64,000 nt of DNA from a virus (lineage: Duplodnaviria; Heunggongvirae; Uroviricota; Caudoviricetes; Demerecviridae): positions 64,242-128,241 of the IMG/VR virus record IMGVR_UViG_2974640449_000001; one strand, given 5' to 3'. The notes under the pieces are model-generated. The model saw nothing but the letters and a program-made list of their open reading frames with translations. It made no database searches and was not told the origin of the DNA. Positions 18,849 through 60,481 of this stretch are shown in pieces. Made by a program: the position numbers and the translations under genes. How positions within the stretch are numbered: the first letter of the stretch is position 1; the number at the start of each line of letters is the position of its first letter.

Positions 18849-19212
18849 CCCATACGTAATCATTGGTGTACTTTCTGTATCGCTAGCTGGCGCAGGGTAT
18901 TTTGGGTATTACCAAACCAAACAGTTAGGTGCAGCCGAGGTAAAGCTAGACGCTGCCAATCTAGAAATTAAGAATAAAGAAGCTACCATTACACAGCTTC
19001 AAATCGAAAATGGAAAAATTATTGAAAAAGCTCAATGGTATCAGGCTGATGTTCAGCGTGTACAGCTTGAGAAAGATAAAATAAAAGAAAAAGCCATTAA
19101 AGACTTAGGTAGGGTCGAGAAGATCGCTAAAAGAAAGTCAAAATTATATGAAAAATTAATTAATAAAGATTATAAGAATACACAACGTCAATTGGAGGAG
19201 CTAACTCAATGA
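18841..19212 (+). CDS. putative i-spanin (N-terminal TM helix plus periplasmic coiled coil)
   Basis: MFNPYVIIGVLSVSLAGAGYFGYY TM segment, then an E/K/Q-rich coiled coil; 123 aa. Confidence 0.45.
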   Translation: MFNPYVIIGVLSVSLAGAGYFGYYQTKQLGAAEVKLDAANLEIKNKEATITQLQIENGKIIEKAQWYQADVQRVQLEKDKIKEKAIKDLGRVEKIAKRKSKLYEKLINKDYKNTQRQLEELTQ

Positions 19213-19499
19213 GATATTTAGCTACTCTTCTATTGCTAGTTGGCTGCGTATCTGTAGAACCAAAACCTGATGATGTTGCTCTACAGACATATAAACCTAC
19301 CAAACCATCACCAGTACAAACCTATAATGTAGACTGGAAGGTAGATGCTAATGGTAATGTGTATCTTTCTAGTGAAGACGGTGTTAAAGTAAATGCCGAA
19401 AGAAAAGATACTCTAAGATATATTAAAGACATGCAAAATCTTGTATGTTACTACGAAGACTCATACTCATTCTGTAAGGAGAATATTAATGAAAAATAA
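19209..19499 (+). CDS. putative o-spanin lipoprotein
   Basis: Signal peptide with lipobox LLLVGC; 96 aa; translationally coupled to the preceding TM/coiled-coil gene. Confidence 0.45.
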   Translation: MRYLATLLLLVGCVSVEPKPDDVALQTYKPTKPSPVQTYNVDWKVDANGNVYLSSEDGVKVNAERKDTLRYIKDMQNLVCYYEDSYSFCKENINEK

Positions 19500-20136
19500 A
19501 TGCACCGCTGGCTTTGCTCGTTCAGGAAAAGATACTTTTGCAGGATTTCTAGCAGATAAGCTAAACATGGATACATATGCTCTAGCACAACCTATTAAAG
19601 ACATTATGTGCGCTCTATTTGGTTGGGGTGACGAGCATCGTGACGGTTCTTATAAAGAAATAGAAATGCTATATTCAATCTCCCCAGAAACCCTTGATCA
19701 AGCTGGTATTCTATATAACCAATATGGATTAGACAACTATGAAGCATTCCATGACTGCTGGGATAAACTTGTAATTCTCTTCGGTATAGAAATCAGAGAA
19801 GATGATCTAGGTTACTGTGTAATAAGTCCTAGACGTGCATTCCAACTATTTGGTACAGAGTGGGGCAGAACCATCCATGATGATATTTGGCTAGAGATTG
19901 CTCCTAAAGAAAATACTATAATTACTGATGTTCGTTTCGACAATGAAGCTAAATATTTCAATGCGCTAGGTGCTGAAATAATTCATATTGAACGTCCTGG
20001 ATTCAGACCAGTAACAAACGGACATGCTAGTGAAGCTGGTGTATCCTACGAGCTTGTAGACTTCTTTATTGTTAATGATAAAGGACTAAAAGAGTTACAA
20101 GAAGCTGCCAATGAAGTAGCTAAGGCAGTGAAATAA
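19489..20136 (+). CDS. dnk: deoxynucleoside monophosphate kinase
   Basis: GFARSGKDT P-loop resembles T4 gp1 (VKRSGKDT). Start at ATG 19489 behind AAGGAGA. Confidence 0.65.
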   Translation: MKNKCTAGFARSGKDTFAGFLADKLNMDTYALAQPIKDIMCALFGWGDEHRDGSYKEIEMLYSISPETLDQAGILYNQYGLDNYEAFHDCWDKLVILFGIEIREDDLGYCVISPRRAFQLFGTEWGRTIHDDIWLEIAPKENTIITDVRFDNEAKYFNALGAEIIHIERPGFRPVTNGHASEAGVSYELVDFFIVNDKGLKELQEAANEVAKAVK

Positions 20137-20291: not shown

Positions 20292-20627
20292 ATGGCATAT
20301 CAAATTTTTACAAGTGACAAGAAAGGTATTGGGGAGATCATCGAACTACCTATCTCCCCAGAGTACGCTCACTGTTTTGCAGGAGTTCGATACTTCGATT
20401 CTAACGATAATCAAATAGTTCCTACATCTGGCTCAGTAAATATTAAAGCCAGACACCTAACTAATAATAACTATGATGACGTAGTTAATGCGGATCTAGA
20501 TGCATCAGAAGCAGGGGCGGAAGCAGAGTGGGGTGGTAATGTTACCTCAGTAAAAGCAACACCTTCTAGTCTTGCCGGAACAGATCTTGCTACATATCAA
20601 GTAGTAGTTGTTCAAAACTTAAGTTAA
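20292..20627 (+). CDS. hypothetical protein (111 aa)
   Basis: RBS AAGGAGAAAGAAATAAATG; first gene of the operon holding the two large proteins. Confidence 0.45.
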   Translation: MAYQIFTSDKKGIGEIIELPISPEYAHCFAGVRYFDSNDNQIVPTSGSVNIKARHLTNNNYDDVVNADLDASEAGAEAEWGGNVTSVKATPSSLAGTDLATYQVVVVQNLS

Positions 20628-20637
20628 GGAGAATAAT

Positions 20638-23151
20638 ATGGGATTTGGCCCAGCCTATGGTACTGGTAGGGGCGGTGGAGCAGTAGACATCTTTACTAAA
20701 AAGGATGGGAACCCTGCCATTTTCGCCAATACTGGTGCTAGAGACACATACTTTACAACAAACCCTGATGAATTAGCTAAAGTAAAATCATCAGGTAATG
20801 CAGTAGCAATAGGTACTACTGATCAAATAACAGCTGCCTATGTATATAAAAATAATGCATGGCAAGCAATTGCAACCAACTTCAAGGGCGACAAAGGTGC
20901 TCCAGGTGCTCCAGGAGATGGGATTGATTACAGTCACCTAGAGGACAATCAATTACCTAAGTGGGATTCAAAAGCAAAAATGTTTGTTAGCTCAGGCATA
21001 CTTTCCCAAGAAGATGGTGAAATAAGAATGGCACCTAACTCCTTGACCTTTGGGCACCACAAAATGTCCTCTGCTATAGCAGATGTTACCTTCACTAACC
21101 TAGGCACAAACGAAAACTACTCGTTTGTTTATCAGACAATGAACCCTGGCGATAAGGATGCTTACATACGTGAAATAGATAGCAATATAGAAGAGATCGT
21201 AAGGGTACCTGTGGGGACAGATGATGTTGTGAACCCATCAAATACAGTTACAGTAGATGTTGATGAAATATTCCTAGGCGGTACTTTTATACTATCACAA
21301 GATACACAAGATGTGTTAATGGAGGTATATAATTTTGATAATCCTACTCAACTTATTTGGAGAGATAACTTAGGTGATATGCCTTCAGGAGAAAACACAG
21401 TTACCTTCGATACACCATTTAAATGTAGAGCTGGTTTTAAGTATATTATCCACCTACTAAGTAAGGCAGGTGACTTAGTAGCAAAAGGTTCCGGTAGCTC
21501 TTTCAGTTGGAAGATCAACCGTGCGAAAATGTACATTAAAAAAGTTGCCTCTCAAGATTGGGTAAATGAACAGCCGTTTATTGATGACGTTACTTTAACC
21601 GGTAACATGTTTACCTTTACTATGGCGAATGGGGCAACTAAATCTGTTACTTTACCTCCAGCTACAGGTGGTGTCGCATCACCTTACGACTTTACTAGCT
21701 TTAATTCTGATAAAACTCCTGTTCTATCAGAGGTTGCGAATAGTACCCCAGTATACCACTTTAATGGTCTAGCAGATTCTACCTTTACGTTACCATCTAC
21801 GGACATTTTACCGCCTAATAAAAACATCGCCCTACTAATTAGAAATGCAAGCCCCAATAACTCTTCCCTAAGTGTAGTGTCTAGTGGGACTGATTTTATA
21901 GATAGAGCAAACATTCGTACACTAAATATACCGCAAGGTATGCTGGCCATGTTTATAAGTGATTATACTAGAGACCTATGGCACATGGTACCTCTTGATT
22001 CAGCTAGTAGTGGACAGAATCTAAATACTAATCAAATAGTTAAGAGCATACAACCAACAGCAAGTGGTAATGGTCTAGTTACTACATACTACGACGACAC
22101 AAGTATAACTACCACATTCGATCCTTGGGTTTCGGATATTAATAAACTTAACGACGCTGTAGATACGCTACAAAGACAACTTAAATCTAAGACTAGATAC
22201 TATGTGTATAAGGGAAGTAACACCCCACCACCAGATATCCCAACTGGAGCTAGGGGCGGGTACTACTTTACCTTTACAGGTACTTCAGCTGATGTAGTAT
22301 TACCAGCACCAAGCAGAACAGCGGCAATAGCTGATGGTACAATCCTGTTTGTTGATAACAACAGTACAAGCTATAAAGTGACTGTAACAACCTCAGGGTC
22401 TGATACTATTGCAGGTGGTACCAAGGTAGATCTACCAGCTGAATCAGCAGCCTGGTACGTTCGTAACGGAAATAACTGGCAAGAACTGTACTCAGGTTAC
22501 TTACCAGAATCGCATAAAAAGCTAATAGACGAGATAAAAACTCTAATATCAGCAAGTAATACTTTTATGCGAGATGTTGGTGTACAAGGTGATGATCCTA
22601 ACGCAGGTAAAGTAGAGTGTACAGAACTAGAGTTTCATAAGTGTAAGGTAACTCAAGATACCACAGTGCCTACTAAAGGTATTGTTAAGTTTGAAGGTAC
22701 TACGTTTGTAAACCCAGACGGTTCAAAAATAACCACAGATGTTATTAAATTGGTAGGGATGGAATTGGTTGATCCATTAGATGGTACACCACCTAAACTA
22801 TTACTACATGGTAGTGGTAACTTACCTACGCCACACCCAACTAGTGGTTACGGTTTCTTTAGTGATTCTGCATCTACACCTGATACTGTTAACTTAAATA
22901 GTCTTCCAGTATTTAGAAATGGTAGAGTAAGTATACATAAAGATACAACTGATCCACAATACGCATATATCCTACTACCACCAGGTGAAGGTACTGATGC
23001 TGACCGAATTGGTGAGCTAGGTGGACTTCCTTCTTACTGGGCTAAGAGTGAGAAAATCTATAATATTGGTGGCGTATCAAGAACATATACAGTGTTCCGT
23101 TCCCCTTATCCATTTAAGGAGCAGGATGTAACACTAATAATTTACCATTAA
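20638..23151 (+). CDS. large (837 aa) Ser/Thr/Gly/Asn-rich protein with collagen-like GDKGAPGAPGDG segment; putative fibre / host-interaction protein
   Basis: RBS TAAGGAGAATAATATG; Gly-X-Y triplets at aa 84-95; beta-rich, low-complexity composition typical of tail fibres. Confidence 0.55.
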   Translation: MGFGPAYGTGRGGGAVDIFTKKDGNPAIFANTGARDTYFTTNPDELAKVKSSGNAVAIGTTDQITAAYVYKNNAWQAIATNFKGDKGAPGAPGDGIDYSHLEDNQLPKWDSKAKMFVSSGILSQEDGEIRMAPNSLTFGHHKMSSAIADVTFTNLGTNENYSFVYQTMNPGDKDAYIREIDSNIEEIVRVPVGTDDVVNPSNTVTVDVDEIFLGGTFILSQDTQDVLMEVYNFDNPTQLIWRDNLGDMPSGENTVTFDTPFKCRAGFKYIIHLLSKAGDLVAKGSGSSFSWKINRAKMYIKKVASQDWVNEQPFIDDVTLTGNMFTFTMANGATKSVTLPPATGGVASPYDFTSFNSDKTPVLSEVANSTPVYHFNGLADSTFTLPSTDILPPNKNIALLIRNASPNNSSLSVVSSGTDFIDRANIRTLNIPQGMLAMFISDYTRDLWHMVPLDSASSGQNLNTNQIVKSIQPTASGNGLVTTYYDDTSITTTFDPWVSDINKLNDAVDTLQRQLKSKTRYYVYKGSNTPPPDIPTGARGGYYFTFTGTSADVVLPAPSRTAAIADGTILFVDNNSTSYKVTVTTSGSDTIAGGTKVDLPAESAAWYVRNGNNWQELYSGYLPESHKKLIDEIKTLISASNTFMRDVGVQGDDPNAGKVECTELEFHKCKVTQDTTVPTKGIVKFEGTTFVNPDGSKITTDVIKLVGMELVDPLDGTPPKLLLHGSGNLPTPHPTSGYGFFSDSASTPDTVNLNSLPVFRNGRVSIHKDTTDPQYAYILLPPGEGTDADRIGELGGLPSYWAKSEKIYNIGGVSRTYTVFRSPYPFKEQDVTLIIYH

Positions 23152-23164
23152 GGAGTGAGTAAAT

Positions 23165-25729
23165 ATGACAAAAATAACAGTTGGTACTCCAGTTACAGCA
23201 CCTCTTACACCAGGTCGTGATGATACCAATGTTTGGCCAACACATTTAGCCAAGTATGGTGCTGGTGGTCTGGAAGTAGTAGAAACTACCAGCGATAGAG
23301 ACGCCATTTCTGATGAAAGAAAGGTAGACAAAGCTGTACTAGTACGTTCAGATGATGGAGGGCTACCTGCCCTCTATGAATGGTCTTCAGGTGGCTGGAA
23401 TAAAGTAGATATCGGAGATTTCTCCGGTATGACAATCACAGATGGAGCTAATGTCTTCAATGACATATTAGAAATAAAACTAGCTAATATAACAGCTAAT
23501 CAGTATCCAAACGACTCAGTTGACTCTGTGACACTAACAGCACAAGGTTCTCTAGATTGGGCTACAATGGGTGATCCTTCCTCTGGTAGTAGAGCAACAT
23601 CAGTATTAGTAGAGCCGCCTCTACAAACATACCCAGACCCAGATAATACAGGGGTTACTCGTCTCAGAGTGAAGGAAGGTTCCTATGAGCCTATGAAAGC
23701 TCCAGGATACTTAGCTTATGTCGACTTCCCTGAAAAAGTCATTGGTAAGCTGGGCTACCATACTCTAGGTCACTATGATAGTGCTATTTGGCCTACTGAT
23801 GTTGTAGTATCAGGTGGTGGCCTAATCCCGACTATAGCAAACAAAAAATATATCGGATTGCAAGAGTATGACGGGAAAGATCCTAGTAAGACAGGTGGCA
23901 CAGACTTTTTAGTAGCTTTCCGAGTTGCTTTTAAGGGTCACGCTGTAAACGCAGGTAAAATTAAAGCTTACCTAGCTAAGCAACCTGCACCTGGTACTTC
24001 CGCTTCCGCTGATTACCTAAGAGATGTAAACGGTGAGTTACTAGTTCGAGAAGTTAACTATAAAACCGGAGATGAGTACGGTTATATAGAGGTACTTGGT
24101 ATTGTTAATGCCAAAGGCCTTACTAACATGTCTATGCATGTAGAGCATAACTTCAGCGACAGTTTACTTATCGAGGAACGAGCTGTAGGTTTGTCCGGTG
24201 TAATGGTACAAGCCCTAGAATCTACATCTAAAACCGGTGCTGCTCTAATGCAGTATGAAGTAGATACTAAGCAAAACATCGAGTTTAATAAGATCTATTA
24301 TGGTGATAGTATTATGGATTTCAACTGGGAAGCTACTCATGGCCTACCAATGGAAGAAATCCAAGCGGGCGTAGGAGCAAACCTTCCGGATGGTTTCCAC
24401 TTTAAAAACCTGTCAAACATTCACATCGGTAGTGAAAATGGCCACATCTATATACATGATGCTGGTACAGTGTGTGACTTCAGTCTAGGTAAAATCTTTA
24501 ATGCCTTCGATACTAGAGCACTGCACGGTAAAGAAATCAACGTTAAAGCTACGATTATAGACAAAGATGCACCATTTACTATCGGCGTAGTTAAATGGAC
24601 AGGAAAACCAGATCAATACACTAATAACATTTTCTCTAGCAGAAACAATGCGGCAGTAGTATTTGACTCTGGTTGGGAACTAGTAGGTTCATTATTCTTC
24701 CCTTCGGATGCTGTAACAGGTGACCATACCCTAACTAAGAAGTTTACAGTACCTTCGGATGCTAAGAACTTTGCGGTTATTATTTACCCTGGTGTACCTA
24801 ATTCTCCACTTACACTGAAAATTAAAGACTTCGATGTTGATGTGGTTAACCCTTTCTATGGATACGAAATGTATGTGGCCGGAAAGCTTAATGAACTACA
24901 CCTAGAAGAAGACACTGAGTTTGCTCATTTCAGTCAAGCTAATGAGAATTATGTATCTCTTCGCTATACAATAGGTAAGTCAGCAGACGGTGACCCAATG
25001 CCTGTAGGTGTTTTGAGAAAGGGTAAAGCTGATATTACATTAGACCCATCAATTAATAAAATTGTTGGTTCAGCTGCTACAAGTGGTGAAGGTGGTCTTA
25101 AGTTCGGAAAAGATGGTAAAGCTATTGTTAATACCACTTTATGGATTCACTCAGAGCAACCTGACAAAACCTCATCAGATGTTACGTTCTGGTATGAGCT
25201 GGTTAACTCTAATGGTATAGCTACTAAAATTGTACCGTCAGAAACTACCTTTAAGGTTAGTGGTAATTCTTCAGGGGATTACTCAATGAAAGAGTTTTCA
25301 CTTGATGTAATAACTGGCGATAGAATCATTCTTAAAGCTTCTGCTGATAAGGATGACGGTGCATTTATTCAATCCAATTCACCTGCCCATCCGCTGGTTG
25401 ATATTGAGATTAGAATTGATGAGCTAACAGCCTTTGCTAATGACGATCCATTTACAGGTATAGAGCTAGATCAATTTGATAAAGTATATACCGGAGTACT
25501 TACAGCTACTAAGTATGTATCACATACTGACTCAGCTACATTCCGTATTGAAGTACCAGATGATATGAATGTATCAGTACTAGAAGCTATTAAGAAGCTT
25601 GATGATGGTACAGTAACAACAGTGAAAAGCCTAGATTGGTCTTACAACTTGAAATCCCAAATGCTAACAGTATATTTTGGTGAAGTTGTAGAAGAATGTG
25701 CGATTACTCTAGGTATTTATACAGCATAA
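23165..25729 (+). CDS. large (854 aa) putative fibre / host-interaction protein
   Basis: RBS TAAGGAGTGAGTAAATATG; S/T/G/N/D-rich repetitive beta-type composition; co-operonic with the 837-aa protein. Confidence 0.55.
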   Translation: MTKITVGTPVTAPLTPGRDDTNVWPTHLAKYGAGGLEVVETTSDRDAISDERKVDKAVLVRSDDGGLPALYEWSSGGWNKVDIGDFSGMTITDGANVFNDILEIKLANITANQYPNDSVDSVTLTAQGSLDWATMGDPSSGSRATSVLVEPPLQTYPDPDNTGVTRLRVKEGSYEPMKAPGYLAYVDFPEKVIGKLGYHTLGHYDSAIWPTDVVVSGGGLIPTIANKKYIGLQEYDGKDPSKTGGTDFLVAFRVAFKGHAVNAGKIKAYLAKQPAPGTSASADYLRDVNGELLVREVNYKTGDEYGYIEVLGIVNAKGLTNMSMHVEHNFSDSLLIEERAVGLSGVMVQALESTSKTGAALMQYEVDTKQNIEFNKIYYGDSIMDFNWEATHGLPMEEIQAGVGANLPDGFHFKNLSNIHIGSENGHIYIHDAGTVCDFSLGKIFNAFDTRALHGKEINVKATIIDKDAPFTIGVVKWTGKPDQYTNNIFSSRNNAAVVFDSGWELVGSLFFPSDAVTGDHTLTKKFTVPSDAKNFAVIIYPGVPNSPLTLKIKDFDVDVVNPFYGYEMYVAGKLNELHLEEDTEFAHFSQANENYVSLRYTIGKSADGDPMPVGVLRKGKADITLDPSINKIVGSAATSGEGGLKFGKDGKAIVNTTLWIHSEQPDKTSSDVTFWYELVNSNGIATKIVPSETTFKVSGNSSGDYSMKEFSLDVITGDRIILKASADKDDGAFIQSNSPAHPLVDIEIRIDELTAFANDDPFTGIELDQFDKVYTGVLTATKYVSHTDSATFRIEVPDDMNVSVLEAIKKLDDGTVTTVKSLDWSYNLKSQMLTVYFGEVVEECAITLGIYTA

Positions 25730-25786
25730 TATAGGGGCAATACAGCCCCTCTAACAGAGGGTATAACCCTATTATAGGTAAAAACT

Positions 25787-26257
25787 ATGAATAAACTAAA
25801 ACTACTAACGTTAGCAGTACTAGCCTCAGTAGGTATGAGCGGAGCAGCTCTAGCAAATACAGTTAACGCTGACTTCTCTACAAGCCTACAAAGCTACTGT
25901 ACTATTGGTCAAACCTCCCCAGGTATTATGCACCTAGATGGTACAGCACTTACTACAGATACTCCTGCACAACTTGTTGTAAACAACAACGATGCCGGTG
26001 TTTACCAAGTAAGTATTAATGCTCCTGCTGACTTTACAAATAAACCAAATAGCTATGCAGGTACTACATCGTTTACCTCAGCATTTGGTCTACAAGGTCA
26101 AAACCCTACAGATAGCCCTGTTGCTAATGGTGCAACTCATGCGCTAGCTAACAGTGGTACTGATAATATGAGTGTATCTATCTTTGGTACCTCTACAACT
26201 GACTTTACAGCAGGTAACTACTCAGCGGTAGTTGTAGCATCATGCGTAGCTCAGTAA
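25787..26257 (+). CDS. Sec-secreted protein (fimbrial-subunit-like; Cys near both termini)
   Basis: Signal peptide MNKLKLLTLAVLASVGMSGAALA; 156 aa, T/S/N-rich. Confidence 0.5.
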   Translation: MNKLKLLTLAVLASVGMSGAALANTVNADFSTSLQSYCTIGQTSPGIMHLDGTALTTDTPAQLVVNNNDAGVYQVSINAPADFTNKPNSYAGTTSFTSAFGLQGQNPTDSPVANGATHALANSGTDNMSVSIFGTSTTDFTAGNYSAVVVASCVAQ

Positions 26258-26649
26258 TACTACTAAGCCTATTAATCTCAGGGTGGGCAAATGCGCTCAC
26301 CCTATCACCAATGTATAAAGATGACTTGGTGTATCAGGATTTATATATGGCTAAGTTCAAATTAGAGAATAATGGAGCAACTCTACAAGAATATGACGTA
26401 TCATTGCATAAAGAATCCCCAGAAGGCGAAATACTATATACTTCCGAGGATGTTCTTGGTGGAGATGGCTACAAGTCTTTAAGTGTTCCTATTTACGATA
26501 TAAAACCAGATAAGTTACAAAAGTATTATATATGTGTAACAGAAAAACCTAAGGAGAATCAGAAATGGGGTGTAGTTGGAAGAGCTTGTGCAAAAGTGCG
26601 GTTATATTGGCCACAATCACAGCTACGTCAGTTAGCGCAGCAGGATTAA
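26242..26649 (+). CDS. Sec-secreted protein
   Basis: Signal peptide MRSSVILLSLLISGWANA; 135 aa. Confidence 0.45.
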   Translation: MRSSVILLSLLISGWANALTLSPMYKDDLVYQDLYMAKFKLENNGATLQEYDVSLHKESPEGEILYTSEDVLGGDGYKSLSVPIYDIKPDKLQKYYICVTEKPKENQKWGVVGRACAKVRLYWPQSQLRQLAQQD

Positions 26650-26942
26650 TCCCTAGCCCAGAGCTACCTTACGGAAATGATTCTATACGTACTCCAGACG
26701 GTTTCCAATGCTCTAGTGCCATAGCTCCTTCTGCCTACATGGACGCTGGTGTGTATCAAGAAGACGACAATAGTAAGTATGGGGACCCAGATAGAGGAGT
26801 ATACGTACGAATAATGGTACCTTTATATAGCGGTACCAAAAGGCTTGATTGTAGCCAGCTTTACAAACAAGCATTAAGGGAGAGACAGCGTGAGCAAGCT
26901 CTCAACGATATTAAATACAACGTGTTTAAGTCTAATAATTAG
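26565..26942 (+). CDS. secreted protein (signal peptide, AXA site VSAAG)
   Basis: 125 aa; overlaps the upstream ORF by 85 nt in another frame, so the start is uncertain. Confidence 0.4.
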   Translation: MGCSWKSLCKSAVILATITATSVSAAGLIPSPELPYGNDSIRTPDGFQCSSAIAPSAYMDAGVYQEDDNSKYGDPDRGVYVRIMVPLYSGTKRLDCSQLYKQALRERQREQALNDIKYNVFKSNN

Positions 26943-27093
26943 TGGTTGCACATTCAACTTTACTATAGACACGGATTATGCATCACAAAGAGATCATGGT
27001 GGACCAATTGAAGAAGAAGTCACAACTCATAACAAAACTGAGACAGATCCTAATGTCGACGCGAACATAGAAGTTCCTGGGGCAGCCTTATGA
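26890..27093 (+). CDS. small lipoprotein (67 aa)
   Basis: Lipobox LIISGC after a hydrophobic leader. Comparable in size to the T5 Llp superinfection-exclusion lipoprotein, which is an inference. Confidence 0.45.
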   Translation: MSKLSTILNTTCLSLIISGCTFNFTIDTDYASQRDHGGPIEEEVTTHNKTETDPNVDANIEVPGAAL

Positions 27094-27299
27094 GATTATC
27101 ACCAGATGTGGAAAGAATCCTAGAGGCTATCAACACTATAAAAGGTGGAGCGAGTATTGTTCCCGAGGACATAGACTCTGCAGTAAGTCACGTACTATCA
27201 GGCTTACCTAAAAATGCTCGTATGGAGTGCATAGGTATGCGGCCTGAACAGAAGCGTGCATTTTTACTAGGGTATGCAGCATGTCTGCGCTTTCATTAA
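27090..27299 (+). CDS. hypothetical protein (69 aa)
   Basis: ORF, translationally coupled. Confidence 0.4.
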   Translation: MRLSPDVERILEAINTIKGGASIVPEDIDSAVSHVLSGLPKNARMECIGMRPEQKRAFLLGYAACLRFH

Positions 27300-27523: not shown

Positions 27524-28195
27524 ATGAACAAAATGAATCTTTTAGCCTCTCTATACGCTTTATTGCAGGACATAAAAGATCCAAAAACTCTGTTAATGAG
27601 AGTAATTTCTATTTTTATTCTCTTGGTTAGCTACCTAATAGTAACCAATCAGAGCACCTTCTTTGACTTTGCCAAAAACTTTTCTAGAACTACCGTTGTA
27701 GAGCAAGTGCAAGCTGAAAGAGTAGCGCAGTATCCTAGGGTTGCCAAGGAAAAAGCTTCAATGCTATATGTGCAAGCTAACTCGGATGCTGTGTTCATTG
27801 CGGAATACACACCTAAGTTTATAAATAACTACCAAGATATTATAGCTTGGGAAGGTAGAATAAACGTTGATCCGTCCAAACTAAGGAAGGCAGTTATTGA
27901 CAAGGCAAGTACGACCTATCAAAATCATTTGGTGGGTCGTAATGAATCAATACTGTTTGAAAATAAACTACCATTACGCGGGGCATTTGTAACTAATGGA
28001 CTAGAATATCAATCTCTAGGCATTAAATATATGTACACTTGCCCTATATTTAACCAGGCAAATAGCTACTCTGGTTACATTGGTATAGCTTGGGCGGAAA
28101 AACCTTTTGAAGATAAAAATGAAAAGGCTCTATTGGAAGCATATCTAGAAAGGGTATGTAATCCACAAGCAAGGGCACTTGGGAGATCAAAGTAA
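27524..28195 (+). CDS. putative holin (single N-terminal TM, T5 holin-like size)
   Basis: 223 aa, TM segment VISIFILLVSYLIVT, immediately upstream of and overlapping the endolysin gene. Confidence 0.5.
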   Translation: MNKMNLLASLYALLQDIKDPKTLLMRVISIFILLVSYLIVTNQSTFFDFAKNFSRTTVVEQVQAERVAQYPRVAKEKASMLYVQANSDAVFIAEYTPKFINNYQDIIAWEGRINVDPSKLRKAVIDKASTTYQNHLVGRNESILFENKLPLRGAFVTNGLEYQSLGIKYMYTCPIFNQANSYSGYIGIAWAEKPFEDKNEKALLEAYLERVCNPQARALGRSK

Positions 28196-28586
28196 TATGG
28201 GATGGTCATTACCTTTCGGAAAATTATGGACTGGGTTCAGTCGTAAAGAGTTCGCATGTAAATGCGGATGTGGGTATGATACTGTAGATGCGGAACTACT
28301 ACAAGTACTGAAGAGACTTAAAAAGCACTTTGGTAATAAGCTAGTGTTTATTGATAGTGGTTGTCGTTGTGTACAGCATAATAAAAAAGTGGGAGGAGCA
28401 GCTAAGTCTCAACACTTATTCGGTAGGGCAGCCGATGTACGTGTTTCTGGCGTATTCCCTGATATGGTAGCAGAGTATTTAATGGAAACTTATCCAGGTA
28501 AATACGGTATTGGACGCTACCGTTCATTCACTCACATTGATACAAGAAAAGTAGAAGCACGTTGGGACAACCGTGCTAAACTGTAA
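28179..28586 (+). CDS. endolysin, peptidase M15 family (L-alanyl-D-glutamate peptidase type)
   Basis: SGCRCVQHNKKVGG...SQHLFGRAADVRV...FTHID: H-x-D...H zinc-peptidase motif; 135 aa, like the T5 Lys protein. Confidence 0.75.
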   Translation: MGDQSNMGWSLPFGKLWTGFSRKEFACKCGCGYDTVDAELLQVLKRLKKHFGNKLVFIDSGCRCVQHNKKVGGAAKSQHLFGRAADVRVSGVFPDMVAEYLMETYPGKYGIGRYRSFTHIDTRKVEARWDNRAKL

Positions 28587-28590: not shown

Positions 28591-28617
28591 ATGGGAGCTT
28601 CGGCTCCCATTTTTATT
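28591..28617 (+). terminator. rho-independent terminator
   Basis: ATGGGAGC-ttcg-GCTCCCAT followed by TTTTTATTT. Confidence 0.75.
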
Positions 28618-28624
28618 TCTTGAA

Positions 28625-28653
28625 TTGTCAAACATAAAAAATTTTCATATAAT
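28625..28653 (+). promoter_or_regulatory. early promoter TTGTCA-17-TATAAT
   Basis: aaTTGTCAaacataaaaaattttcaTATAATatataaag. Confidence 0.55.
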
Positions 28654-28677
28654 ATATAAAGAAATTAAGGAGAGCTT

Positions 28678-29139
28678 ATGAAGATTGAAAAATTAGAACA
28701 CCTACTAGCAACAGCCGAACAGTGGGCAAAAGACCTACATGCTGGTCAAAAATACGCTTTCGACGACGATTACTTCGAGGCACACATCAAAGAAGTAGAG
28801 AAAACAGTAATTGAGCTTACTCGTAGCTCTTCGTTTACACGAACAGAACGCTATTTAGCACGTATTGTGGCTTTGTTGCACGATATTATTGAAGATACAG
28901 ATTGTACACTAGCAGATGTACAGCGTACTTTTGGGACTCGTATTGCTCAGTGTGTTCTCAACCTAACTAAAGTGTCGAAAGAGTCTTGGGAGGCTCAGTG
29001 GTCTCGCGCTACTCGTGACCCAATCTCTCTGGTAGTTAAGAAAGCGGCTATGATGGTAAACCTTCGCACCTCTCTAGCTAACAGCCGCATTAACTTAATT
29101 GAAAAATACACAACTGGGTTACGTTATTTATCTTTATAA
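28678..29139 (+). CDS. small HD-domain hydrolase, (p)ppGpp hydrolase (RelA/SpoT HD, Mesh1/SAH-like)
   Basis: WAKDLHAGQKY...HI and LARIVALLHDIIEDT...FG..IA match the SpoT HD signature AALLHDVIEDT; 153 aa. Confidence 0.6.
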   Translation: MKIEKLEHLLATAEQWAKDLHAGQKYAFDDDYFEAHIKEVEKTVIELTRSSSFTRTERYLARIVALLHDIIEDTDCTLADVQRTFGTRIAQCVLNLTKVSKESWEAQWSRATRDPISLVVKKAAMMVNLRTSLANSRINLIEKYTTGLRYLSL

Positions 29140-29168
29140 TTGCTAAACGCTGTTAAAAAGCGTATAAT
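29139..29168 (+). promoter_or_regulatory. early promoter TTGCTA-18-TATAAT with conserved leader
   Basis: aaTTGCTAaacgctgttaaaaagcgTATAATagttacataaagtt. Confidence 0.6.
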
Positions 29169-29195: not shown

Positions 29196-30236
29196 TTGAA
29201 TATTTTTGTATTAGACCTAGACCCCAAGATGGCTGCGCAGTATCACTGTGATAAGCATGTAATCTCTCAGATGAAAGAGGGAGTGCAGATGCTTACTACA
29301 GCTCTAATTTATTGGGGTAATAAAGTTCCGTTAAATAAATCTGGCGACCCATATAAGAAAGCTCACGAAAATCATCCCTGTACGGTATGGGCTAGACAAG
29401 GTTTGTCCAACTATCAGTGGTTATGGGACTTAGTATATGCGCTTGTTGAAGAAGCAGAGTATCGTTTTGGTAATACTTACCATATTGCAAGTATTATGCG
29501 TGATGGATCATTACCTCGTACTCCAGAGTTCCATCCAGTACCCGACTTACGTACACCTTTTGCTAATGCTACAGCAGATTGGCTTAAATCTGCTGATACT
29601 TGGGATGATAAGTCCACCTTTGCTACGTTAACAGCTATTGACATTTATCGTCTCTACTACATTGTAGATAAGATGCACATGACAGCAGTTGAGATGGGTG
29701 AGCAAAACATCCATTGGCAGTCTAAGCACACGCTAGGCGAAGAATTTACAGATTACTCTATTTGGACTAAACGTGGAGCACCGGAATTTATGGGCGACAG
29801 ATTTTACCGACAACAATGCGATTACTTTGGTATTAAAGCTACCGACCTTATCTTAATGGGTCGTTTCCCAGATTCCGAAGAATCTAAGAAGCTAAAAGCT
29901 AAGATGTATCGTAAACTTGGTAAAAAGTCCACTGGTACGGTTGCGTCTGCTAAAGCTAAGAAAACTACTAAAGCGGATGTTCTAGTAGATATTCGTGAGC
30001 TTATGGGTCATGAAGGTATGGACTGTTTACTTAAACTAACCTTACCAGACTTACAAAAAGTTAAGCTAGCTCTAATAGCTATGCACGAAAATCAGGTAGA
30101 GTACCCTGATATGCCAACAGGCAGAGTCAAAGCCCCATACGCGGCAGCAGTTAAGCAATTATTTAATTGTGATGCCGACTTTAATAAACTAACCTTAGCG
30201 GGACTTAAAGAATTACTTGAGCACTTCGGTGCTTAA
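29196..30236 (+). CDS. conserved hypothetical protein (N-terminus MNIFVLDLDPKMAAQYHCDKHV resembles the TIGR02328-like phage family)
   Basis: 346-aa ORF with TTG start behind GGAGATTG. Confidence 0.45.
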   Translation: MNIFVLDLDPKMAAQYHCDKHVISQMKEGVQMLTTALIYWGNKVPLNKSGDPYKKAHENHPCTVWARQGLSNYQWLWDLVYALVEEAEYRFGNTYHIASIMRDGSLPRTPEFHPVPDLRTPFANATADWLKSADTWDDKSTFATLTAIDIYRLYYIVDKMHMTAVEMGEQNIHWQSKHTLGEEFTDYSIWTKRGAPEFMGDRFYRQQCDYFGIKATDLILMGRFPDSEESKKLKAKMYRKLGKKSTGTVASAKAKKTTKADVLVDIRELMGHEGMDCLLKLTLPDLQKVKLALIAMHENQVEYPDMPTGRVKAPYAAAVKQLFNCDADFNKLTLAGLKELLEHFGA

Positions 30237-37017: not shown

Positions 37018-37281
37018 ATGGCAGATTTTTGGGACAAACACCTTACAAAAGAGCAGCAGTACGAAATCGTAGATTCAGTTGCAGGTACTTGTGATACAGG
37101 TTGTAATGCTGAATACTGGCAAAAAGAGTTTGGCTTCAGCAATGAAGTTCGTGACGAGTTAAACTGGGATTTTCCTAGTCTAGCTGCTAAATTCGAGCTA
37201 TTCCGCTGTGAAGATTGCATGTGGTGGGGTGACATGGGTGAAGTTGGTGACTGTAATGAATGTGGTGGAGAGTTAGTATGA
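37018..37281 (+). CDS. Cys-rich zinc-ribbon protein (87 aa)
   Basis: CDTGC...CEDC...CNEC. Confidence 0.45.
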   Translation: MADFWDKHLTKEQQYEIVDSVAGTCDTGCNAEYWQKEFGFSNEVRDELNWDFPSLAAKFELFRCEDCMWWGDMGEVGDCNECGGELV

Positions 37282-38204
37282 AATTCAACGTACAAGATTT
37301 GATTGACCGTGGCTTGGTTAAAGCTAAAGAATATGATAATGGACTAAAAGTATTGAAGTACGACCGCTCGGTATTCTTCAAAAACTTGTGGCATCTAGAC
37401 GAACGCTTGCTTGAGTGTCGTGGTCGCGTGGTTGATGCTGACTGGAATGTGATTATTAATCCATTCAAAAAAGTATTCAACTATGGTGAAAACGGTACTG
37501 GTAACGAGCTACGAAAAGACTGTCTGTACCGTGAAGTACACAAGCTCAATGGTTTCCTGGGTTGTGTTACTCGTTCCTCAGAGTATGGTATGTTGTACTC
37601 TACTACTGGTACACTAGACTCAGAGTATGCGCAGATGGTTAAAGATATGTTTCTAGAGCATACTCGTCACATTGATGAAATTCATCCAGATTTCACACTG
37701 ATGTTCGAAGTATGTCACCAAGACGACCCACATATTGTACCAGAGCAGGTAGGTATCTACTTGATCGGTTGCCGCCATACTGGTGAGGGCGAAGAATGCG
37801 AAGAAGAGCAGTTTACAGAGAAAGAGCTAGATAAACTTGCACGTCATTTCGGTTGGCGTCGTCCAGAGCATCGTCTAGATACTCTGGAAAATATCCTAGC
37901 ACGAGCTAAGGCATCTAAAACAGAAGGTGTTATGGTGTGTTCAGCACTTAACGACGAGCACTTGTTTAAGTACAAGACTCCACACTACCTGTCCAAGAAA
38001 CTACTTATGCGTCTAGGTAAAGCCCGTGTAGAACAGCTGTTTGACAATCCAGAACAGTTTAAAAAGAGCTTAAAGGATGAGGAGTTCTTCGGTTTTGTAG
38101 ATTACGTGGCTCGGTACATCGGTCGAGATATGTGGAAAACACTAAAAGACCAAGAGCGTCGTGAACTGATTGAGTGCTGGTTCGACAAAAACAACGCTTT
38201 TTAA
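37278..38204 (+). CDS. RNA ligase 1 (T4 Rnl1-like tRNA ligase)
   Basis: LLECRGRVVD ~ T4 Rnl1 ALECRGIMF; VHKLNGFLG in the position of the Rnl1 motif-I lysine block (TKEDGSL). Confidence 0.65.
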   Translation: MKFNVQDLIDRGLVKAKEYDNGLKVLKYDRSVFFKNLWHLDERLLECRGRVVDADWNVIINPFKKVFNYGENGTGNELRKDCLYREVHKLNGFLGCVTRSSEYGMLYSTTGTLDSEYAQMVKDMFLEHTRHIDEIHPDFTLMFEVCHQDDPHIVPEQVGIYLIGCRHTGEGEECEEEQFTEKELDKLARHFGWRRPEHRLDTLENILARAKASKTEGVMVCSALNDEHLFKYKTPHYLSKKLLMRLGKARVEQLFDNPEQFKKSLKDEEFFGFVDYVARYIGRDMWKTLKDQERRELIECWFDKNNAF

Positions 38205-38205
38205 A

Positions 38206-38234
38206 TTGCCAAAGCAAGGAAGCTTTGATATAAT
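38206..38234 (+). promoter_or_regulatory. early promoter TTGCCA-17-TATAAT
   Basis: aaTTGCCAaagcaaggaagctttgaTATAATatctgtagaaattgaggagatt. Confidence 0.5.
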
Positions 38235-38259
38235 ATCTGTAGAAATTGAGGAGATTGTT

Positions 38260-38523
38260 ATGATTATTTCTAAGTATGATGTAGTCGTGAGTTTTGGTAC
38301 AAGTAGTTACTGCGATGTAACTATGTGCCAAAGTGATTTTTGTCAGATTAAGGACGAACTTGTAGAGAGACTAGGAGAGTTTGGTGGAGAGATCTGTGTA
38401 ACACTTACCACTATCTCTTTCACTATCTCAGGTGTTGAAGACGCTGCATACGCCGAAGAGCTAGAAACTAAGCTAGCTGATATTGGTGAATACTTACTTG
38501 AATGTTTATGGGAGCAAGAATAA
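38260..38523 (+). CDS. hypothetical protein (87 aa)
   Basis: RBS GAGGAGATTGTTATG. Confidence 0.4.
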   Translation: MIISKYDVVVSFGTSSYCDVTMCQSDFCQIKDELVERLGEFGGEICVTLTTISFTISGVEDAAYAEELETKLADIGEYLLECLWEQE

Positions 38524-38927
38524 TGAAAAAACTATATTTGATTCGTGGTGTGTCTGGTTCTGGCAAAACTACTCTAGCTAAGTCAATGGAACAAGGTATG
38601 CGATACTCTCGTGCTGTTGCTGCTGACGATTACTTCATGTTTGAAGGTAAGTATCTATTTGATGTTAACAAGCTACATGCAGCGCATCAATGGTGTCAAG
38701 ACCAAGTTGACGGTCTTATGATTTGTGAGATGCACCACATTATTGTGCATAACACCTTCACTACAGAAAAAGAAATGAAGCCGTACTTTGACTTAGCGGA
38801 GAAATACGGCTATGAAGTAACCACCCTAGTGGTTGAGAACCGTCACGGCAATGATTCAGTACACGATGTGCCAGAAGAAACATTAACACGCCAACGTCAA
38901 CGCCTACGTGCCAACATCCGTCTATAA
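38523..38927 (+). CDS. P-loop polynucleotide 5'-kinase-like protein (Pnk kinase-domain homolog)
   Basis: MKKLYLIRGVSGSGKTTLAK Walker A motif; 134 aa; sits between the RNA ligase and a phosphoesterase. Confidence 0.55.
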   Translation: MKKLYLIRGVSGSGKTTLAKSMEQGMRYSRAVAADDYFMFEGKYLFDVNKLHAAHQWCQDQVDGLMICEMHHIIVHNTFTTEKEMKPYFDLAEKYGYEVTTLVVENRHGNDSVHDVPEETLTRQRQRLRANIRL

Positions 38928-38936
38928 GGAGAAGAT

Positions 38937-39500
38937 ATGCGTCTACAGTTCGGAGCAAAACTAAACCCAGATGTGAATTACTTTATCACGTCTGACCTAC
39001 ACTTCTTTCATACTAACATCATGAAGTTCTGTCCAAAAACACGTCCTTGGGCTGAACGCGATGAAATGAATGAAGCACTTATTGCACATTGGAACTCTAT
39101 TGTGGGTGAAGATGATGTAGTCTTCCACATTGGAGACTTTTCATTCGCAGGGATGGATAAAACTCAGGGTATCCTAGACCGATTGAATGGTACAATTATC
39201 TTTGTAATGGGCAACCATGATAAGACCATTCGAAATCAGTTGAAGTCTCACAACAAGTTCGAATATCTCGAAGTTACTTATAATAAAATCAAAATTTGTA
39301 TGTTCCACTATGCGATGCGTGTTTGGAATCAACAACATCGTGGAGCAGTTCACTTTTATGGGCACTCCCATGGGTCACTACCAGGTACTGGACGTTCTAT
39401 GGATGTAGGCTTCGATGCTCACGGTAAAATCCTGCCTCTAGATTGGGCAGTAAAACAAATGCTTAAAATTGAAAACACTGAAACAGAGGATCACCACTAA
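38937..39500 (+). CDS. calcineurin-like metallophosphoesterase (putative 2',3'-phosphatase partner of the kinase)
   Basis: DLHFFH, GDF, GNHD, GHSH motifs; 187 aa. Confidence 0.6.
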   Translation: MRLQFGAKLNPDVNYFITSDLHFFHTNIMKFCPKTRPWAERDEMNEALIAHWNSIVGEDDVVFHIGDFSFAGMDKTQGILDRLNGTIIFVMGNHDKTIRNQLKSHNKFEYLEVTYNKIKICMFHYAMRVWNQQHRGAVHFYGHSHGSLPGTGRSMDVGFDAHGKILPLDWAVKQMLKIENTETEDHH

Positions 39501-40078
39501 TGAAAAAGTTTCTAGTATTACTTGCTGCTACCCTATCTTTTAACGCATTTGCAGGTAGCTGTGCACAATCAGTTAATAACATTAGTGGCTTGGATAAAGC
39601 CACTAAACAACAAATGATAATTCAGTGTGAGCAGGCAAAGCTTGACACTATCACACAAATACCAGGGGAAGTATCTGACGCTACCGTTGAAAAGATGGAT
39701 AAATGGTCAGAAATCTCCTTAAAGTTTGCTAAAGCTATCGGTGTAGCTGCACGTGAAGTAGGGGTAGCTACTAATGAGTTCTTGCAGACACCCGCAGGTA
39801 AGTTCACTGCCGCAATTATACTATGGAAGGTATTAAGTATATCGCAATGGACTATGTTCTTCTTAATTACTGGTGTAACTACTATTGTAGTTCGTAGTTT
39901 CATACGTCTTATGCGATTGTCCCACTATGAAGAACGCGAGACAAAGTTCTTTGGCAGGCGTAAGCAGCCAATTTACAGCACCTGGCGTGACTTAGGAGAT
40001 ACCCAAGCATTCTTTGTTGTATGTGGTTATGCTGTAATAATTATAGTATTCTTAGTTGCAGGGATTAATATATTATGA
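39500..40078 (+). CDS. secreted / membrane protein (signal peptide plus 2 C-terminal TM helices)
   Basis: MKKFLVLLAATLSFNAFA signal peptide; hydrophobic segments. Confidence 0.5.
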   Translation: MKKFLVLLAATLSFNAFAGSCAQSVNNISGLDKATKQQMIIQCEQAKLDTITQIPGEVSDATVEKMDKWSEISLKFAKAIGVAAREVGVATNEFLQTPAGKFTAAIILWKVLSISQWTMFFLITGVTTIVVRSFIRLMRLSHYEERETKFFGRRKQPIYSTWRDLGDTQAFFVVCGYAVIIIVFLVAGINIL

Positions 40079-40500
40079 TTAAATATGTAATAACATTGGT
40101 ATGCCTAGTATTAACGCTAGGCTTTTCTTTCGATGCTGCTGCGGATGACAGCATCTACCTAGGTGGCTTCTCATACCATTTTGAGGACGACCGAAATAAC
40201 ATTAACCCGTTGCTATTCTATCAAAAAGATGGTTACGTAGGAGGCTATTTTTATAATAGCTTTGAAAATCATAGCCTATTACTAGGAAAAGACTTTAGTA
40301 TACACAGGGATGGTATTACTATTGGAGTAGTACCTAGTATTATCTATGGGTATGAGAAGAAACAAACATTGGCTGCGTGTACAGGTAAAATATGTCTGGG
40401 AGCGTTGCCATACATAAAATTCGATTATGATGAGCATTGGAGTCCTGCGGTTATAGTAGGCGGTACATTCTTTACTGCTATCGTAGAGTATAAATTTTAA
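40075..40500 (+). CDS. small outer-membrane beta-barrel-like protein (Ail/Lom/PagP-sized)
   Basis: Signal peptide; alternating aromatic/hydrophobic pattern; C-terminal ...VEYKF ends in Phe, typical of an OMP sorting signal. Confidence 0.4.
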   Translation: MIKYVITLVCLVLTLGFSFDAAADDSIYLGGFSYHFEDDRNNINPLLFYQKDGYVGGYFYNSFENHSLLLGKDFSIHRDGITIGVVPSIIYGYEKKQTLAACTGKICLGALPYIKFDYDEHWSPAVIVGGTFFTAIVEYKF

Positions 40501-40506
40501 ATCTTA

Positions 40507-40537
40507 GGTTGCTTCGGCAACCTTTTTTACGTATAAT
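40507..40537 (+). promoter_or_regulatory. terminator hairpin GGTTGCTTCGGCAACC-T6 whose loop supplies the -35 (TTGCTT) of an early promoter (TATAAT at 40532)
   Basis: aGGTTGCTTCGGCAACCttttttacgTATAATatatacataaattaaagagaagga. Confidence 0.6.
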
Positions 40538-40567
40538 ATATACATAAATTAAAGAGAAGGAAACAAC

Positions 40568-41437: not shown

Positions 41438-41910
41438 TTAAAGTAGTAAAAGGTGATATGGTCAAACACCTACAATCAAAAGACCATCTAGATGCATACG
41501 CTCACCAGTGTAACTGTTTTTGTAGAATGGGGAGAGGCATTGCGCCTCTTCTAGCTAAAGCAGTTCCTGGTCTTAGACAGGCAGACGATATGACTGTGCC
41601 TGGGGATAAATCTAAGTTGGGTAGTGTGTCTTTAGCTGCACATCCCAACGGTGCAGTAGTATTCAATGTATATGGACAATATCATTGGCACGCTCATAAA
41701 GTAGCCCCAGGTAGAAATACTGACTACGATGCGCTAGAGAAAGGGCTGTGGAGAGTGTTAGCGGATATGCTAAAAGACGACATGAAAACGTTGGGTTTAC
41801 CTCTGATTGGTTGCGGTCTAGCAGGGGGTGATTGGGATAATGTAGTGCTCCCAATGATTCACAAAGTATTTGATAATTCAGGCGTTGACGTAACTATTTT
41901 TAAATTGTAA
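41434..41910 (+). CDS. macro-domain protein (ADP-ribose binding / hydrolase fold)
   Basis: AHQCNCFCRMGRGIA ~ macro NAANxxLxGGGGVxxAI; PLIGCGLAGGDW ~ macro FPAISTGIYG. Confidence 0.6.
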   Translation: MIKVVKGDMVKHLQSKDHLDAYAHQCNCFCRMGRGIAPLLAKAVPGLRQADDMTVPGDKSKLGSVSLAAHPNGAVVFNVYGQYHWHAHKVAPGRNTDYDALEKGLWRVLADMLKDDMKTLGLPLIGCGLAGGDWDNVVLPMIHKVFDNSGVDVTIFKL

Positions 41911-41920
41911 TTGCTTAACT

Positions 41921-41949
41921 AGCTAAATTTACGTATAATATATTCATAA
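41921..41949 (+). promoter_or_regulatory. early promoter TTGCTT-17-TATAAT
   Basis: aaTTGCTTaactagctaaatttacgTATAATatattcataaattaaagagaagga. Confidence 0.55.
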
Positions 41950-41971
41950 ATTAAAGAGAAGGAAATAATCT

Positions 41972-57841: not shown

Positions 57842-57900
57842 TTTGTTGCCCTCGCTTTCTAGCGGTAGTTAGTGGGGACTTTCGTCCCCCCGTTGATTAA

Positions 57901-60386: not shown

Positions 60387-60399
60387 CCGTCTAATAAAT

Positions 60400-60480: not shown

Positions 60481-60481
60481 C

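Follow-up and report, generated by a model that had tools for sequence, protein, structure and literature searches.

The product of gene gp152 in Vibrio phage Ceto is a RelA/SpoT-type hydrolase with a single HD domain, of the small alarmone hydrolase (SAH) class, in which the aspartate expected as the fourth ligand of the catalytic metal is an alanine (D124A), an exchange that probably leaves the enzyme strongly weakened or inactive (hypomorphic). We studied the gene in a window of 64,000 nucleotides (nt), the whole stretch analyzed, which covers positions 64,242 to 128,241 of IMG/VR record IMGVR_UViG_2974640449_000001 and is given as one strand, 5' to 3'; subtracting 64241 from a record coordinate gives the window coordinate used below. 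The stretch is that of Ceto (NC_042094/MG649966), to which the 4 kb around gp152 are 100% identical. Ceto is a T5-like phage of 128 kb (Demerecviridae; Ermolyevavirinae, Cetovirus), and its isolation host is Vibrio harveyi BAA-1116. In RefSeq gp152 is labeled "metal-dependent phosphohydrolase", and in the original GenBank record "hypothetical". The protein belongs to a monophyletic, phage-dominated branch, carried mainly by virulent phages and here called the GQxY branch, which lies beside the compact SAHs typified by Aph1 (adenosine 3'-pyrophosphohydrolase 1 of a Bacteroides caccae prophage, structure 7SMG; PMC10083569) and PbcSpo. The open reading frame (ORF), its promoter and the terminator before it, the fold, the family, the branch, the residue states and the polymorphism at codon 124 are observations of this analysis. 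The gene and the two sites in it on which the argument turns are as follows.

28678..29139, + strand: gp152 coding sequence, single-domain RelA/SpoT-type HD hydrolase (SAH), GQxY branch, 153 amino acids (aa) (ATG-to-stop ORF, Pfam, PHROG, AF2, Foldseek, tree)
28879..28896, + strand: codons 68-73 (H68-D69-I-I-E72-D73), holding an unaltered HD metal motif and the catalytic ED pair (alignments A1-A5, in which these columns are invariant or nearly so)
29047..29049, + strand: codon 124, GCT, which puts Ala where the fourth metal ligand Asp is expected (RelSeq D144, hMESH1 D122, Aph1 D110) (alignments)

A single-domain hydrolase of the RelA/SpoT class

The 153-aa ORF on the + strand and the LARIVALLHDIIEDT...TFG motif in its translation are exactly as claimed in a preliminary description of the window made from its letters alone, and the stand-alone RelA/SpoT-type HD hydrolase that it proposed is borne out by the Pfam check it had suggested and by the fold. 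The match to Pfam HD_4 (PF13328), at 28.0 bits and E 2e-6, is marginal for the Ceto protein alone, the cut-off being 27.2; phrog_990 was matched at E 7e-44, and the NCBIfam model TIGR00691 (spoT_relA) gave a local match at E 6e-11. Sequence searches of the PDB returned Lmo0812, Aph1, Rel, Mesh1 and SpoT, and a profile built from the gp152 clade matched Aph1, Lmo0812, RelSeq, Rel and Mesh1 at E 4e-9 to 5e-4. A structure model (AF2, 62 homologs) reached a pLDDT of 96.7 and a pTM of 0.92, and all 19 Foldseek matches to it in the PDB at E<1e-3 are RelA/SpoT homolog (RSH) hydrolases, led by Aph1 (TM-score 0.79 normalized to the query, TMq, and 0.85 normalized to the target, TMt; 30% identity over ~150 columns) and followed by MESH1, the Pseudomonas aeruginosa SAH (PaSAH), RelH and the hydrolase domains of Rel/SpoT. 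Family scores, a confident model and structure matches to RSH hydrolases together put the family match well past chance and make the assignment to the RelA/SpoT hydrolases secure. The preliminary description had named the class Mesh1/SAH, of which the second half stands, while the nearest characterized relative is Aph1 and not Mesh1. A general dNTPase or 5'-nucleotidase of the HD type was rejected, because YpgQ-type and other HD folds score far below the RSH hydrolases.

The alignments place H21, Q24, H36, H68, D69, E72, D73, K121 and N128 in gp152. Three of the four metal ligands are thus kept, namely the upstream H36 and the H68/D69 of the HD motif, as are the catalytic pair E72/D73 and the helix-8 asparagine, N128. 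A family search of the Ceto genome found gp152 to be the sole member of its family there. Elsewhere in the family, four metagenomic proteins of 330-350 aa (P0014, P0015, P0026 and P0029) carry two tandem SAH-type HD domains per chain.

Loss of the fourth metal ligand

Helix 8 reads VVKKAD(M/I)(M/L)VNLR in all close relatives, as opposed to VVKKAAMMVNLR in Ceto. Position 124 is an aspartate in 123 of the 127 aligned family members and in every one of 77 aligned bacterial homologs, long Rel/SpoT proteins included, so that the clade as a whole has the fourth ligand and the Ceto allele lacks it. This aspartate corresponds to a direct metal ligand in characterized enzymes: Mn2+ is held by H53, H77 and D144 in RelSeq (PMC13299517), and the metal in hMESH1 by H35, H61, D62 and D122 (bioRxiv 10.1101/325266). 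The preliminary description had held that His-Asp ligands missing from a full alignment would speak against its assignment; H36, H68 and D69 are all present, and because the fourth-ligand Asp is replaced by Ala124 the objection applies in part to the Ceto allele. The register at position 124 comes from the alignment with Aph1, in which D110 and N114 fall on positions 124 and 128, and also from the RelSeq numbering (KLAD144RLHN148MR150) and the i/i+4 pair D122/N126 in helix 8 of MESH1; the register motif in gp152 is K121-x-x-D-x-x-x-N128. In helix 8 a local HMMER alignment between the clade profile and RelSeq slips out of register, and the Aph1 alignment and the K-x-x-D-x-x-x-N spacing were used there.

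A single base change, GAT to GCT, accounts for D124A. The aspartate codon GAT is found in a metagenomic sibling, L020 (SRR26726364), whose protein is 97% identical, and the GCT of Ceto recurs in a second metagenomic contig, L019 (SRR26726358; 99% protein identity). A sequencing error at codon 124 was considered and rejected, since L019 carries the same GCT independently. The equivalent D311A mutant of SAMHD1, another HD enzyme, is catalytically inactive (PMC7045340), and it is by analogy with such a mutant that the Ceto protein would be weakened or dead. Most likely, the D124A allele of Ceto arose recently, as a natural loss-of-function variant of a phage gene that is conserved in other respects.

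Conservation, recombination and recurrent loss

Across the gp152 clade, the ratio of non-synonymous to synonymous substitution rates (dN/dS) is 0.03-0.19, similar to that of the holin and the endolysin, and the gene order holin-endolysin-SAH-gp153-DUF7179 is kept as far as Vibrio cholerae phage JSF12, whose SAH is 38% identical. Purifying selection and an order kept out to JSF12 argue that the SAH gene is an old and useful resident of these genomes. The metagenomic contigs L019 and L020 come from neighboring Sequence Read Archive (SRA) runs, so the Asp124 and Ala124 alleles appear to co-circulate. L019 is a recombinant within the SAH gene, with the L020 haplotype in codons 13-60 and identity to Ceto in codons 61-153. 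It differs from Ceto by 11 synonymous changes and 1 non-synonymous change, all of them in codons 13-60 and equal to the L020 haplotype. Purifying selection after D124A was rejected as an inference from this 11:1 ratio, because all of the differences lie in the recombinant segment.

Catalytic residues have been lost elsewhere in the clade. Contig L017 (protein P0009) also has Ala124, encoded by GCC, together with H36Y, E72V and D73N, in a full-length ORF that keeps the pocket residues. Import of this Ala124 from a Ceto-like phage was rejected, as the codon differs and local DNA identity is ~0.73. D69G in L018 (P0006), D124T in P0146 and D73N in P0140 are further cases. These losses are independent of one another. 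They could represent tolerated loss of function or drift toward a non-catalytic role, and we leave them unexplained because there are few of them, known mostly from single contigs.

A phage-dominated branch with its own base pocket

Since a word-indexed homolog search with the single gp152 protein yielded 13 matches, profile searches and exhaustive searches of representatives were used instead. The exhaustive profile search found ~47,000 relatives, and among the closest 150 the sequences of ~140-200 aa split into two types. The majority carry the Aph1 signature D24, R96, D116, R119, K133 and Y134, in which D24 and R119 set the specificity for ppApp versus ppGpp (Ahmad et al. 2023, PMC10083569). 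The other type, which comprises the Ceto clade and ~17 other representatives at 50% identity, keeps R110, K143 and Y144 (equivalent to R96, K133 and Y134 of Aph1), has a tyrosine at the D24 position and mostly arginine or lysine at that of D116, and is without the 4-residue insert that carries R119. In gp152 itself three of the six signature residues are therefore kept (R110, K143 and Y144); D24 has become Y26, D116 has become R130, and the R119 insert is absent. The three absent residues are those beside the base, and they include both determinants of ppApp/ppGpp specificity. The compact Aph1 fold (~140-150 aa, no C-terminal helix 9) is present in gp152, at 153 aa and a TM-score of 0.85 normalized to Aph1.

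The same tyrosine also stands where Rel has the arginine that follows HxGQ and contacts guanine (RelSeq R44, TtRel R43), and it is invariant in the clade; the R44Q mutant of RelSeq is inactive in hydrolysis (PMC13299517). Because Tyr26 replaces both the arginine of Rel and the aspartate of Aph1, the substrate preference cannot be read from either the ppGpp or the ppApp type. The authors of Pseudomonas phage Adele came to the same conclusion on the substrate of their homolog (PMC12846349). The labels "ppGpp hydrolase" and "GTP pyrophosphokinase" attached to the homologs in KIT04 and JSF12 are unjustified. In a neighbor-joining tree of 110 sequences, the 23 sequences of the Tyr26 type form one pure clade, also when the signature columns are removed.

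The branch is widespread in phages. Relatives of gp152 itself were found by tblastn in 141 phage records, and other branch members have their best matches in 167-498 records; the carriers are Vibrio T5-like phages, myoviruses of Pseudomonas aeruginosa, P. syringae and P. putida (Pakpuna- and Otago-type), and phages of Acinetobacter, Aeromonas and Klebsiella. The structure database BFVD holds 23 viral matches at E<1e-3, one of which is gp152's own entry. Given these numbers, the preliminary description's view of the gene as unusual cargo does not hold, and its statement that such genes are only partly characterized in phages has to be read beside two phage SAHs that had already been functionally tested in 2020. 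Among 185,579 genomes of bacteria and archaea scanned, no close relative of gp152 and no match in Vibrio was found. That scan returned mostly long Rel/SpoT proteins through a shared HDIIEDTD peptide and was used as a conservation control only; 2 of the 80 loci retrieved carry the Tyr26-type residue.

Transcription signals and neighboring genes

The preliminary description had placed gp152 just after the lysis genes and behind a promoter of its own, and both placements hold. The features around the gene are as follows.

27524..28195, + strand: gp150, T4-type T-holin (Pfam Phage_holin_T, E 3e-49; phrog_860, E 7e-69)
28197..28586, + strand: gp151, endolysin, Peptidase_M15_3, RefSeq start ATG 28197 (PF08291, E 5e-26; phrog_894, E 8e-41)
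28591..28620, + strand: intrinsic terminator at the end of the lysis pair, with an 8-bp stem, a TTCG loop and a T-run; hairpin and T-run placed at 28591-28610 by the scan (sequence scan; compensatory changes)
28625..28653, + strand: sigma-70-type promoter TTGTCA-17-TATAAT serving gp152 (11 of 12 consensus matches; top site of a 5-kb scan)
28667..28672, + strand: Shine-Dalgarno sequence AAGGAG, 5 nt before the gp152 ATG (read from the sequence)
29140..29168, + strand: promoter TTGCTA-17-TATAAT serving gp153 (scan, conservation, 17-site set)

Both the terminator and the promoter of gp152 are conserved in a manner expected of functional signals. The terminator stem covaries across Ceto, L004, L018 and JSF12 (GGGAGC/GCTCCC, AGAGAGC/GCTCTCT and AAGGAGCC/GGCTCCTT), and in five diverged relatives both promoter hexamers are invariant and the spacer varies. 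Further, TTGnnn-N16-18-TATAAT occurs at 17 sites on the + strand of the window versus none on the - strand, most of them shortly before a ribosome-binding site and a start codon. The signals are credible because the stem covaries, the hexamers stay fixed while the spacer drifts, and the promoter set is stereotyped. As the next promoter begins 1 nt past the gp152 stop codon, gp152 forms a one-gene unit. Sites on the + strand are found, for example, at 5856, 6401, 9128, 15922, 29140, 32550, 36956, 47341 and 49043, and in the majority of the 17, TTGCTA-17-TATAAT precedes a conserved AGTTxCATAAAGTT box, with the ribosome-binding site next. In sequence, the set looks like a stereotyped family of phage promoters with an extended downstream element.

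The immediate neighbors of gp152 are the holin, the endolysin, gp153 (phrog_624) and a DUF7179 gene; the adjacent toxic RSH synthetase that would mark a type IV antitoxin or immunity gene is not among them. PADLOC returned no match for gp152. For the endolysin, the list of ORFs gives an alternative start at TTG 28179, which overlaps the holin, as opposed to the RefSeq ATG at 28197. The lysis genes of Ceto are split, with an annotated Rz-like spanin at 19209-19499, ~8 kb upstream of the holin-endolysin pair. Downstream, gp153 (29196-30236) starts at a TTG codon and is served by a promoter of its own; phrog_624 is annotated as a DNA binding protein, a weak N-terminal match to Pyr_excise (E 5e-4) falls below the cut-off, and neither a PDB sequence search nor PADLOC gave a match. 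The gene is syntenic with the SAH gene as far as JSF12, and phage Achelous has another gene behind the same promoter.

Other parts of the window are also distinctive. Between a dNMP kinase (19489-20136) and the holin lies a block of ~7 kb (20292-27299) that encodes a DUF7265 protein together with two ~840-aa ORFs and five small ones; several of these products have N-termini that resemble signal peptides, and no ORF of the block has a Pfam match. Because the dNMP kinase of JSF12 lies directly upstream of the holin, the block resembles an inserted module of cargo genes for secreted proteins. At ~37278-43582 Ceto has genes for an RNA ligase, an ATPase and a phosphoesterase, and for phosphoribosyl pyrophosphate (PRPP) synthetase and NAMPT, which resemble an RNA-repair set and an NAD-salvage set; such genes adjoin an SAH homolog in Pseudomonas phage Kassivere (L023, 3959-8423) and are also present in Salmonella phage PVP-SE1 (L109, 22126-30203). 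At the end of the window (~56289-64000), gp205-220 mirror gp1-17 of the other genome end at the level of annotation, including a dmp 5'-nucleotidase and a DNA transfer protein, and the region is predicted from annotation to be a T5-type long terminal repeat with pre-early genes.

Proposed role and alternative explanations

The reading that we consider rather probable is that gp152 is an SAH of a phage branch, expressed from its own promoter, and that the Ceto D124A allele of it is weak or inactive. The gene would be transcribed alone from a stereotyped sigma-70-type promoter immediately downstream of the terminator that ends the holin-endolysin pair. We infer early expression from its place in a + strand block with genes for nucleotide metabolism, tRNAs and NAD salvage, a block that corresponds to the T5 early region; the substrate, the role in infection and the effect of D124A are likewise inferred. 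Enzymes of the branch are predicted to remove a 3'-pyrophosphate in a metal-dependent reaction, with (p)ppApp and/or (p)ppGpp as candidate substrates and possibly also the tRNA 3' ends pyrophosphorylated by toxic small alarmone synthetases (toxSAS). Such hydrolysis would cancel growth arrest imposed on the infected cell by alarmones or toxSAS, and in Ceto the replacement of the fourth-ligand Asp by Ala would leave the enzyme weakened or dead. Countering alarmone- or toxSAS-based arrest is a plausible role, the best precedented for a phage gene of this kind (PMC7229694), and that part of the preliminary description's proposal stands. Its other suggestion, a ppGpp hydrolase that dampens the stringent response, is not the default reading, because the nearest characterized relative is Aph1 and the guanine-contact arginine of Rel is Tyr26 here.

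Several points weigh against this account. For an RSH hydrolase, SAMHD1 D311A offers an analogy only, and some activity might persist with three ligands and a water. The Ala allele is present in at least two natural genomes with an intact and highly conserved ORF, which would fit a working allele too. Because L019 is identical to Ceto from codon 61 on, the pair carries no information on selection since D124A or on the age of the allele. With Tyr26 in place of both the Rel-type arginine and the Aph1-type aspartate, the identity of the substrate is a guess. Finally, the annotation of Ceto lists neither an RSH synthetase nor a MuF toxin, a negative drawn from annotation alone and without a scan of the hypothetical genes, ~60% of the total.

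A fully competent SAH that is expressed early despite Ala124 and hydrolyzes (p)ppGpp, lifting the stringent response, or else (p)ppApp or toxSAS products, is in our view unlikely. In its favor, all the other catalytic residues are intact, the promoter is strong and conserved, the clade is under purifying selection, and two natural sequences carry the Ala allele independently; alarmone-depleting phage SAHs and the phage MazG-type protein Atd1 are documented, and the stringent response can restrict phages (PMC13483052). However, the lost aspartate is essentially invariant and one of only 3-4 direct metal ligands in RelSeq and MESH1, the analogous mutation inactivates SAMHD1, and the arginine that Rel needs for ppGpp hydrolysis (R44Q being inactive) is a tyrosine across the branch. 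The recurrent losses in the Vibrio-phage clade (Ceto/L019, L017/P0009, L018/P0006, P0146 and P0140) would instead suit a pseudo-hydrolase, that is, a protein that has or is acquiring a non-catalytic role in binding a pyrophosphorylated nucleotide, a tRNA end, or a host or defense protein. The ORFs concerned are full length and keep Y26, R110, K121, N128, K143 and Y144, and dN/dS between L017 and Ceto is 0.19. We nevertheless regard this as very unlikely: the cases are few and mostly single metagenomic contigs, their enrichment is weak (~3 of 18 in the branch against 3-5 of ~100 representatives in the rest of the family), and all 40-odd isolated relatives of the Thalassavirus type keep every catalytic residue. 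Moreover, without the metal a 3'-diphosphate should also be bound less tightly, and alarmones reach millimolar levels, beyond what a stoichiometric binder could handle.

It is also conceivable that the family acts beyond alarmones, as a MESH1-like phosphatase of NADPH, adenosine 3',5'-bisphosphate (pAp), 3'-phosphoadenosine 5'-phosphosulfate (PAPS) or another 2'- or 3'-phosphorylated adenosine nucleotide, and serves the nucleotide and NAD economy of the phage instead of counter-defense. MESH1 is an NADPH phosphatase that binds PAPS as well, metabolic promiscuity has been described for an orphan bacterial SAH (PMC9765508), Ceto has NAD-salvage genes (PnuC-like, PRPP synthetase, NAMPT) and many genes of nucleotide metabolism, homologs in other phages sit among dCMP deaminase, ligase, primase and NAMPT genes, and the base pocket with Tyr26 is unlike both characterized types. 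Against this, the nearest characterized relatives in sequence and structure are dedicated (p)ppApp hydrolases, ppApp was hydrolyzed by 12 of 12 tested Aph1 homologs, and R110, K143 and Y144, which are thought to hold the pyrophosphate, are kept, all of which makes such an activity highly improbable. A more speculative proposal, which we think quite unlikely, is that the GQxY branch is a distinct SAH type whose substrate is neither (p)ppGpp nor (p)ppApp, candidates being the tRNA CCA end pyrophosphorylated by CapRel or FaRel2 or some other nucleotide signal, and that the repeated losses (Ceto, L017, L018, P0146, P0140) mark a switch to counter-defense by binding. The tRNA CCA end would fit, because such phages have 25 tRNA genes as well as a set for RNA repair (RNA ligase, kinase and phosphoesterase) that adjoins the homolog in Kassivere.

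Stand-alone phage SAHs are established, and gp152 adds nothing new in kind. Few answers have been proposed to CapRel, FaRel, PhRel and Tas1-like toxins and to restriction by the stringent response; phage alarmone hydrolases are among them, and only two have been tested. What gp152 points to is a large phage-specific branch in hundreds of genomes of Vibrio, Pseudomonas, Acinetobacter and Aeromonas phages, with a base pocket unlike that of the ppGpp or the ppApp type. Further, the natural allelic pair of Asp124 (L020-type) and Ala124 (Ceto), together with the known host of Ceto, could reveal what the enzyme contributes during infection.

Comparison with known systems

The dimeric SAHs of ~180 aa (Mesh1, PaSAH and RelH) and the HD domain of long Rel/SpoT proteins share the fold of gp152 (TMq 0.70-0.75) and the H...HD...ED...D...N layout, and the NLR motif after helix 8 of gp152 resembles the NMR of Rel. 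They differ in being longer, in having at least nine helices, in carrying an arginine at the position of Tyr26, and in sharing only 18-24% identity with gp152. A functional analog of the role proposed here is provided by Atd1, a phage MazG-like pyrophosphatase that depletes (p)ppGpp as a counter-defense (Ho et al., bioRxiv 10.1101/2022.06.09.495361), although its fold is unrelated, MazG rather than HD.

Aph1 is both the best structural match and the best match in profile-sequence comparison (E 4e-9). Like gp152 it is compact (~150 aa), lacks the extra C-terminal helix and is phage-borne, and the two have in common the HD and ED motifs, the helix-8 asparagine and the equivalents of R96, K133 and Y134. 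However, D24, D116 and R119 of Aph1 are not shared, its metal ligand D110 is Ala124 in Ceto, and gp152 falls in a separate monophyletic clade. Aph1 adjoins a MuF-fused (p)ppApp synthetase toxin and an immunity gene, whereas no such partner is annotated in Ceto; more generally, ATfaRel and Aph1 have an adjacent toxin and gp152 has none.

The phage SAHs of Salmonella phages PVP-SE1 (PbcSpo) and SSU5 (PaSpo) neutralized all five of the toxSAS toxins against which they were tested (Jimmy et al. 2020, PMC7229694), and SAHs strip from tRNA the pyrophosphate added by FaRel2 (bioRxiv 10.1101/2021.04.30.441581). We take PVP-SE1 gp220 and SSU5_099 to be the tested proteins by their annotation and as the sole family match in each genome (all of PVP-SE1; bases 1-100,000 of the 103,299 of SSU5). 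They are 27% and 25% identical to gp152, respectively, and both keep the fourth-ligand Asp. SSU5_099 has 213 aa and a Rel-like R-K, and gp220 (L111, 36782-37291) has the full Aph1-type signature, with D-K after GQ, D..R after the helix-8 asparagine, and K-Y near the C-terminus. Thus PbcSpo and the Aph1 family, though named independently, appear to be one group. PVP-SE1 also resembles Ceto in having RNA ligase, ATPase and phosphoesterase genes as well as PRPP-synthetase and NAMPT genes. Like gp152, the SAHs of PVP-SE1 and SSU5 are single-domain RSH hydrolases in phages with no adjacent toxin, and, since both neutralized every toxSAS tested, they are the direct functional precedent for the Ceto gene.

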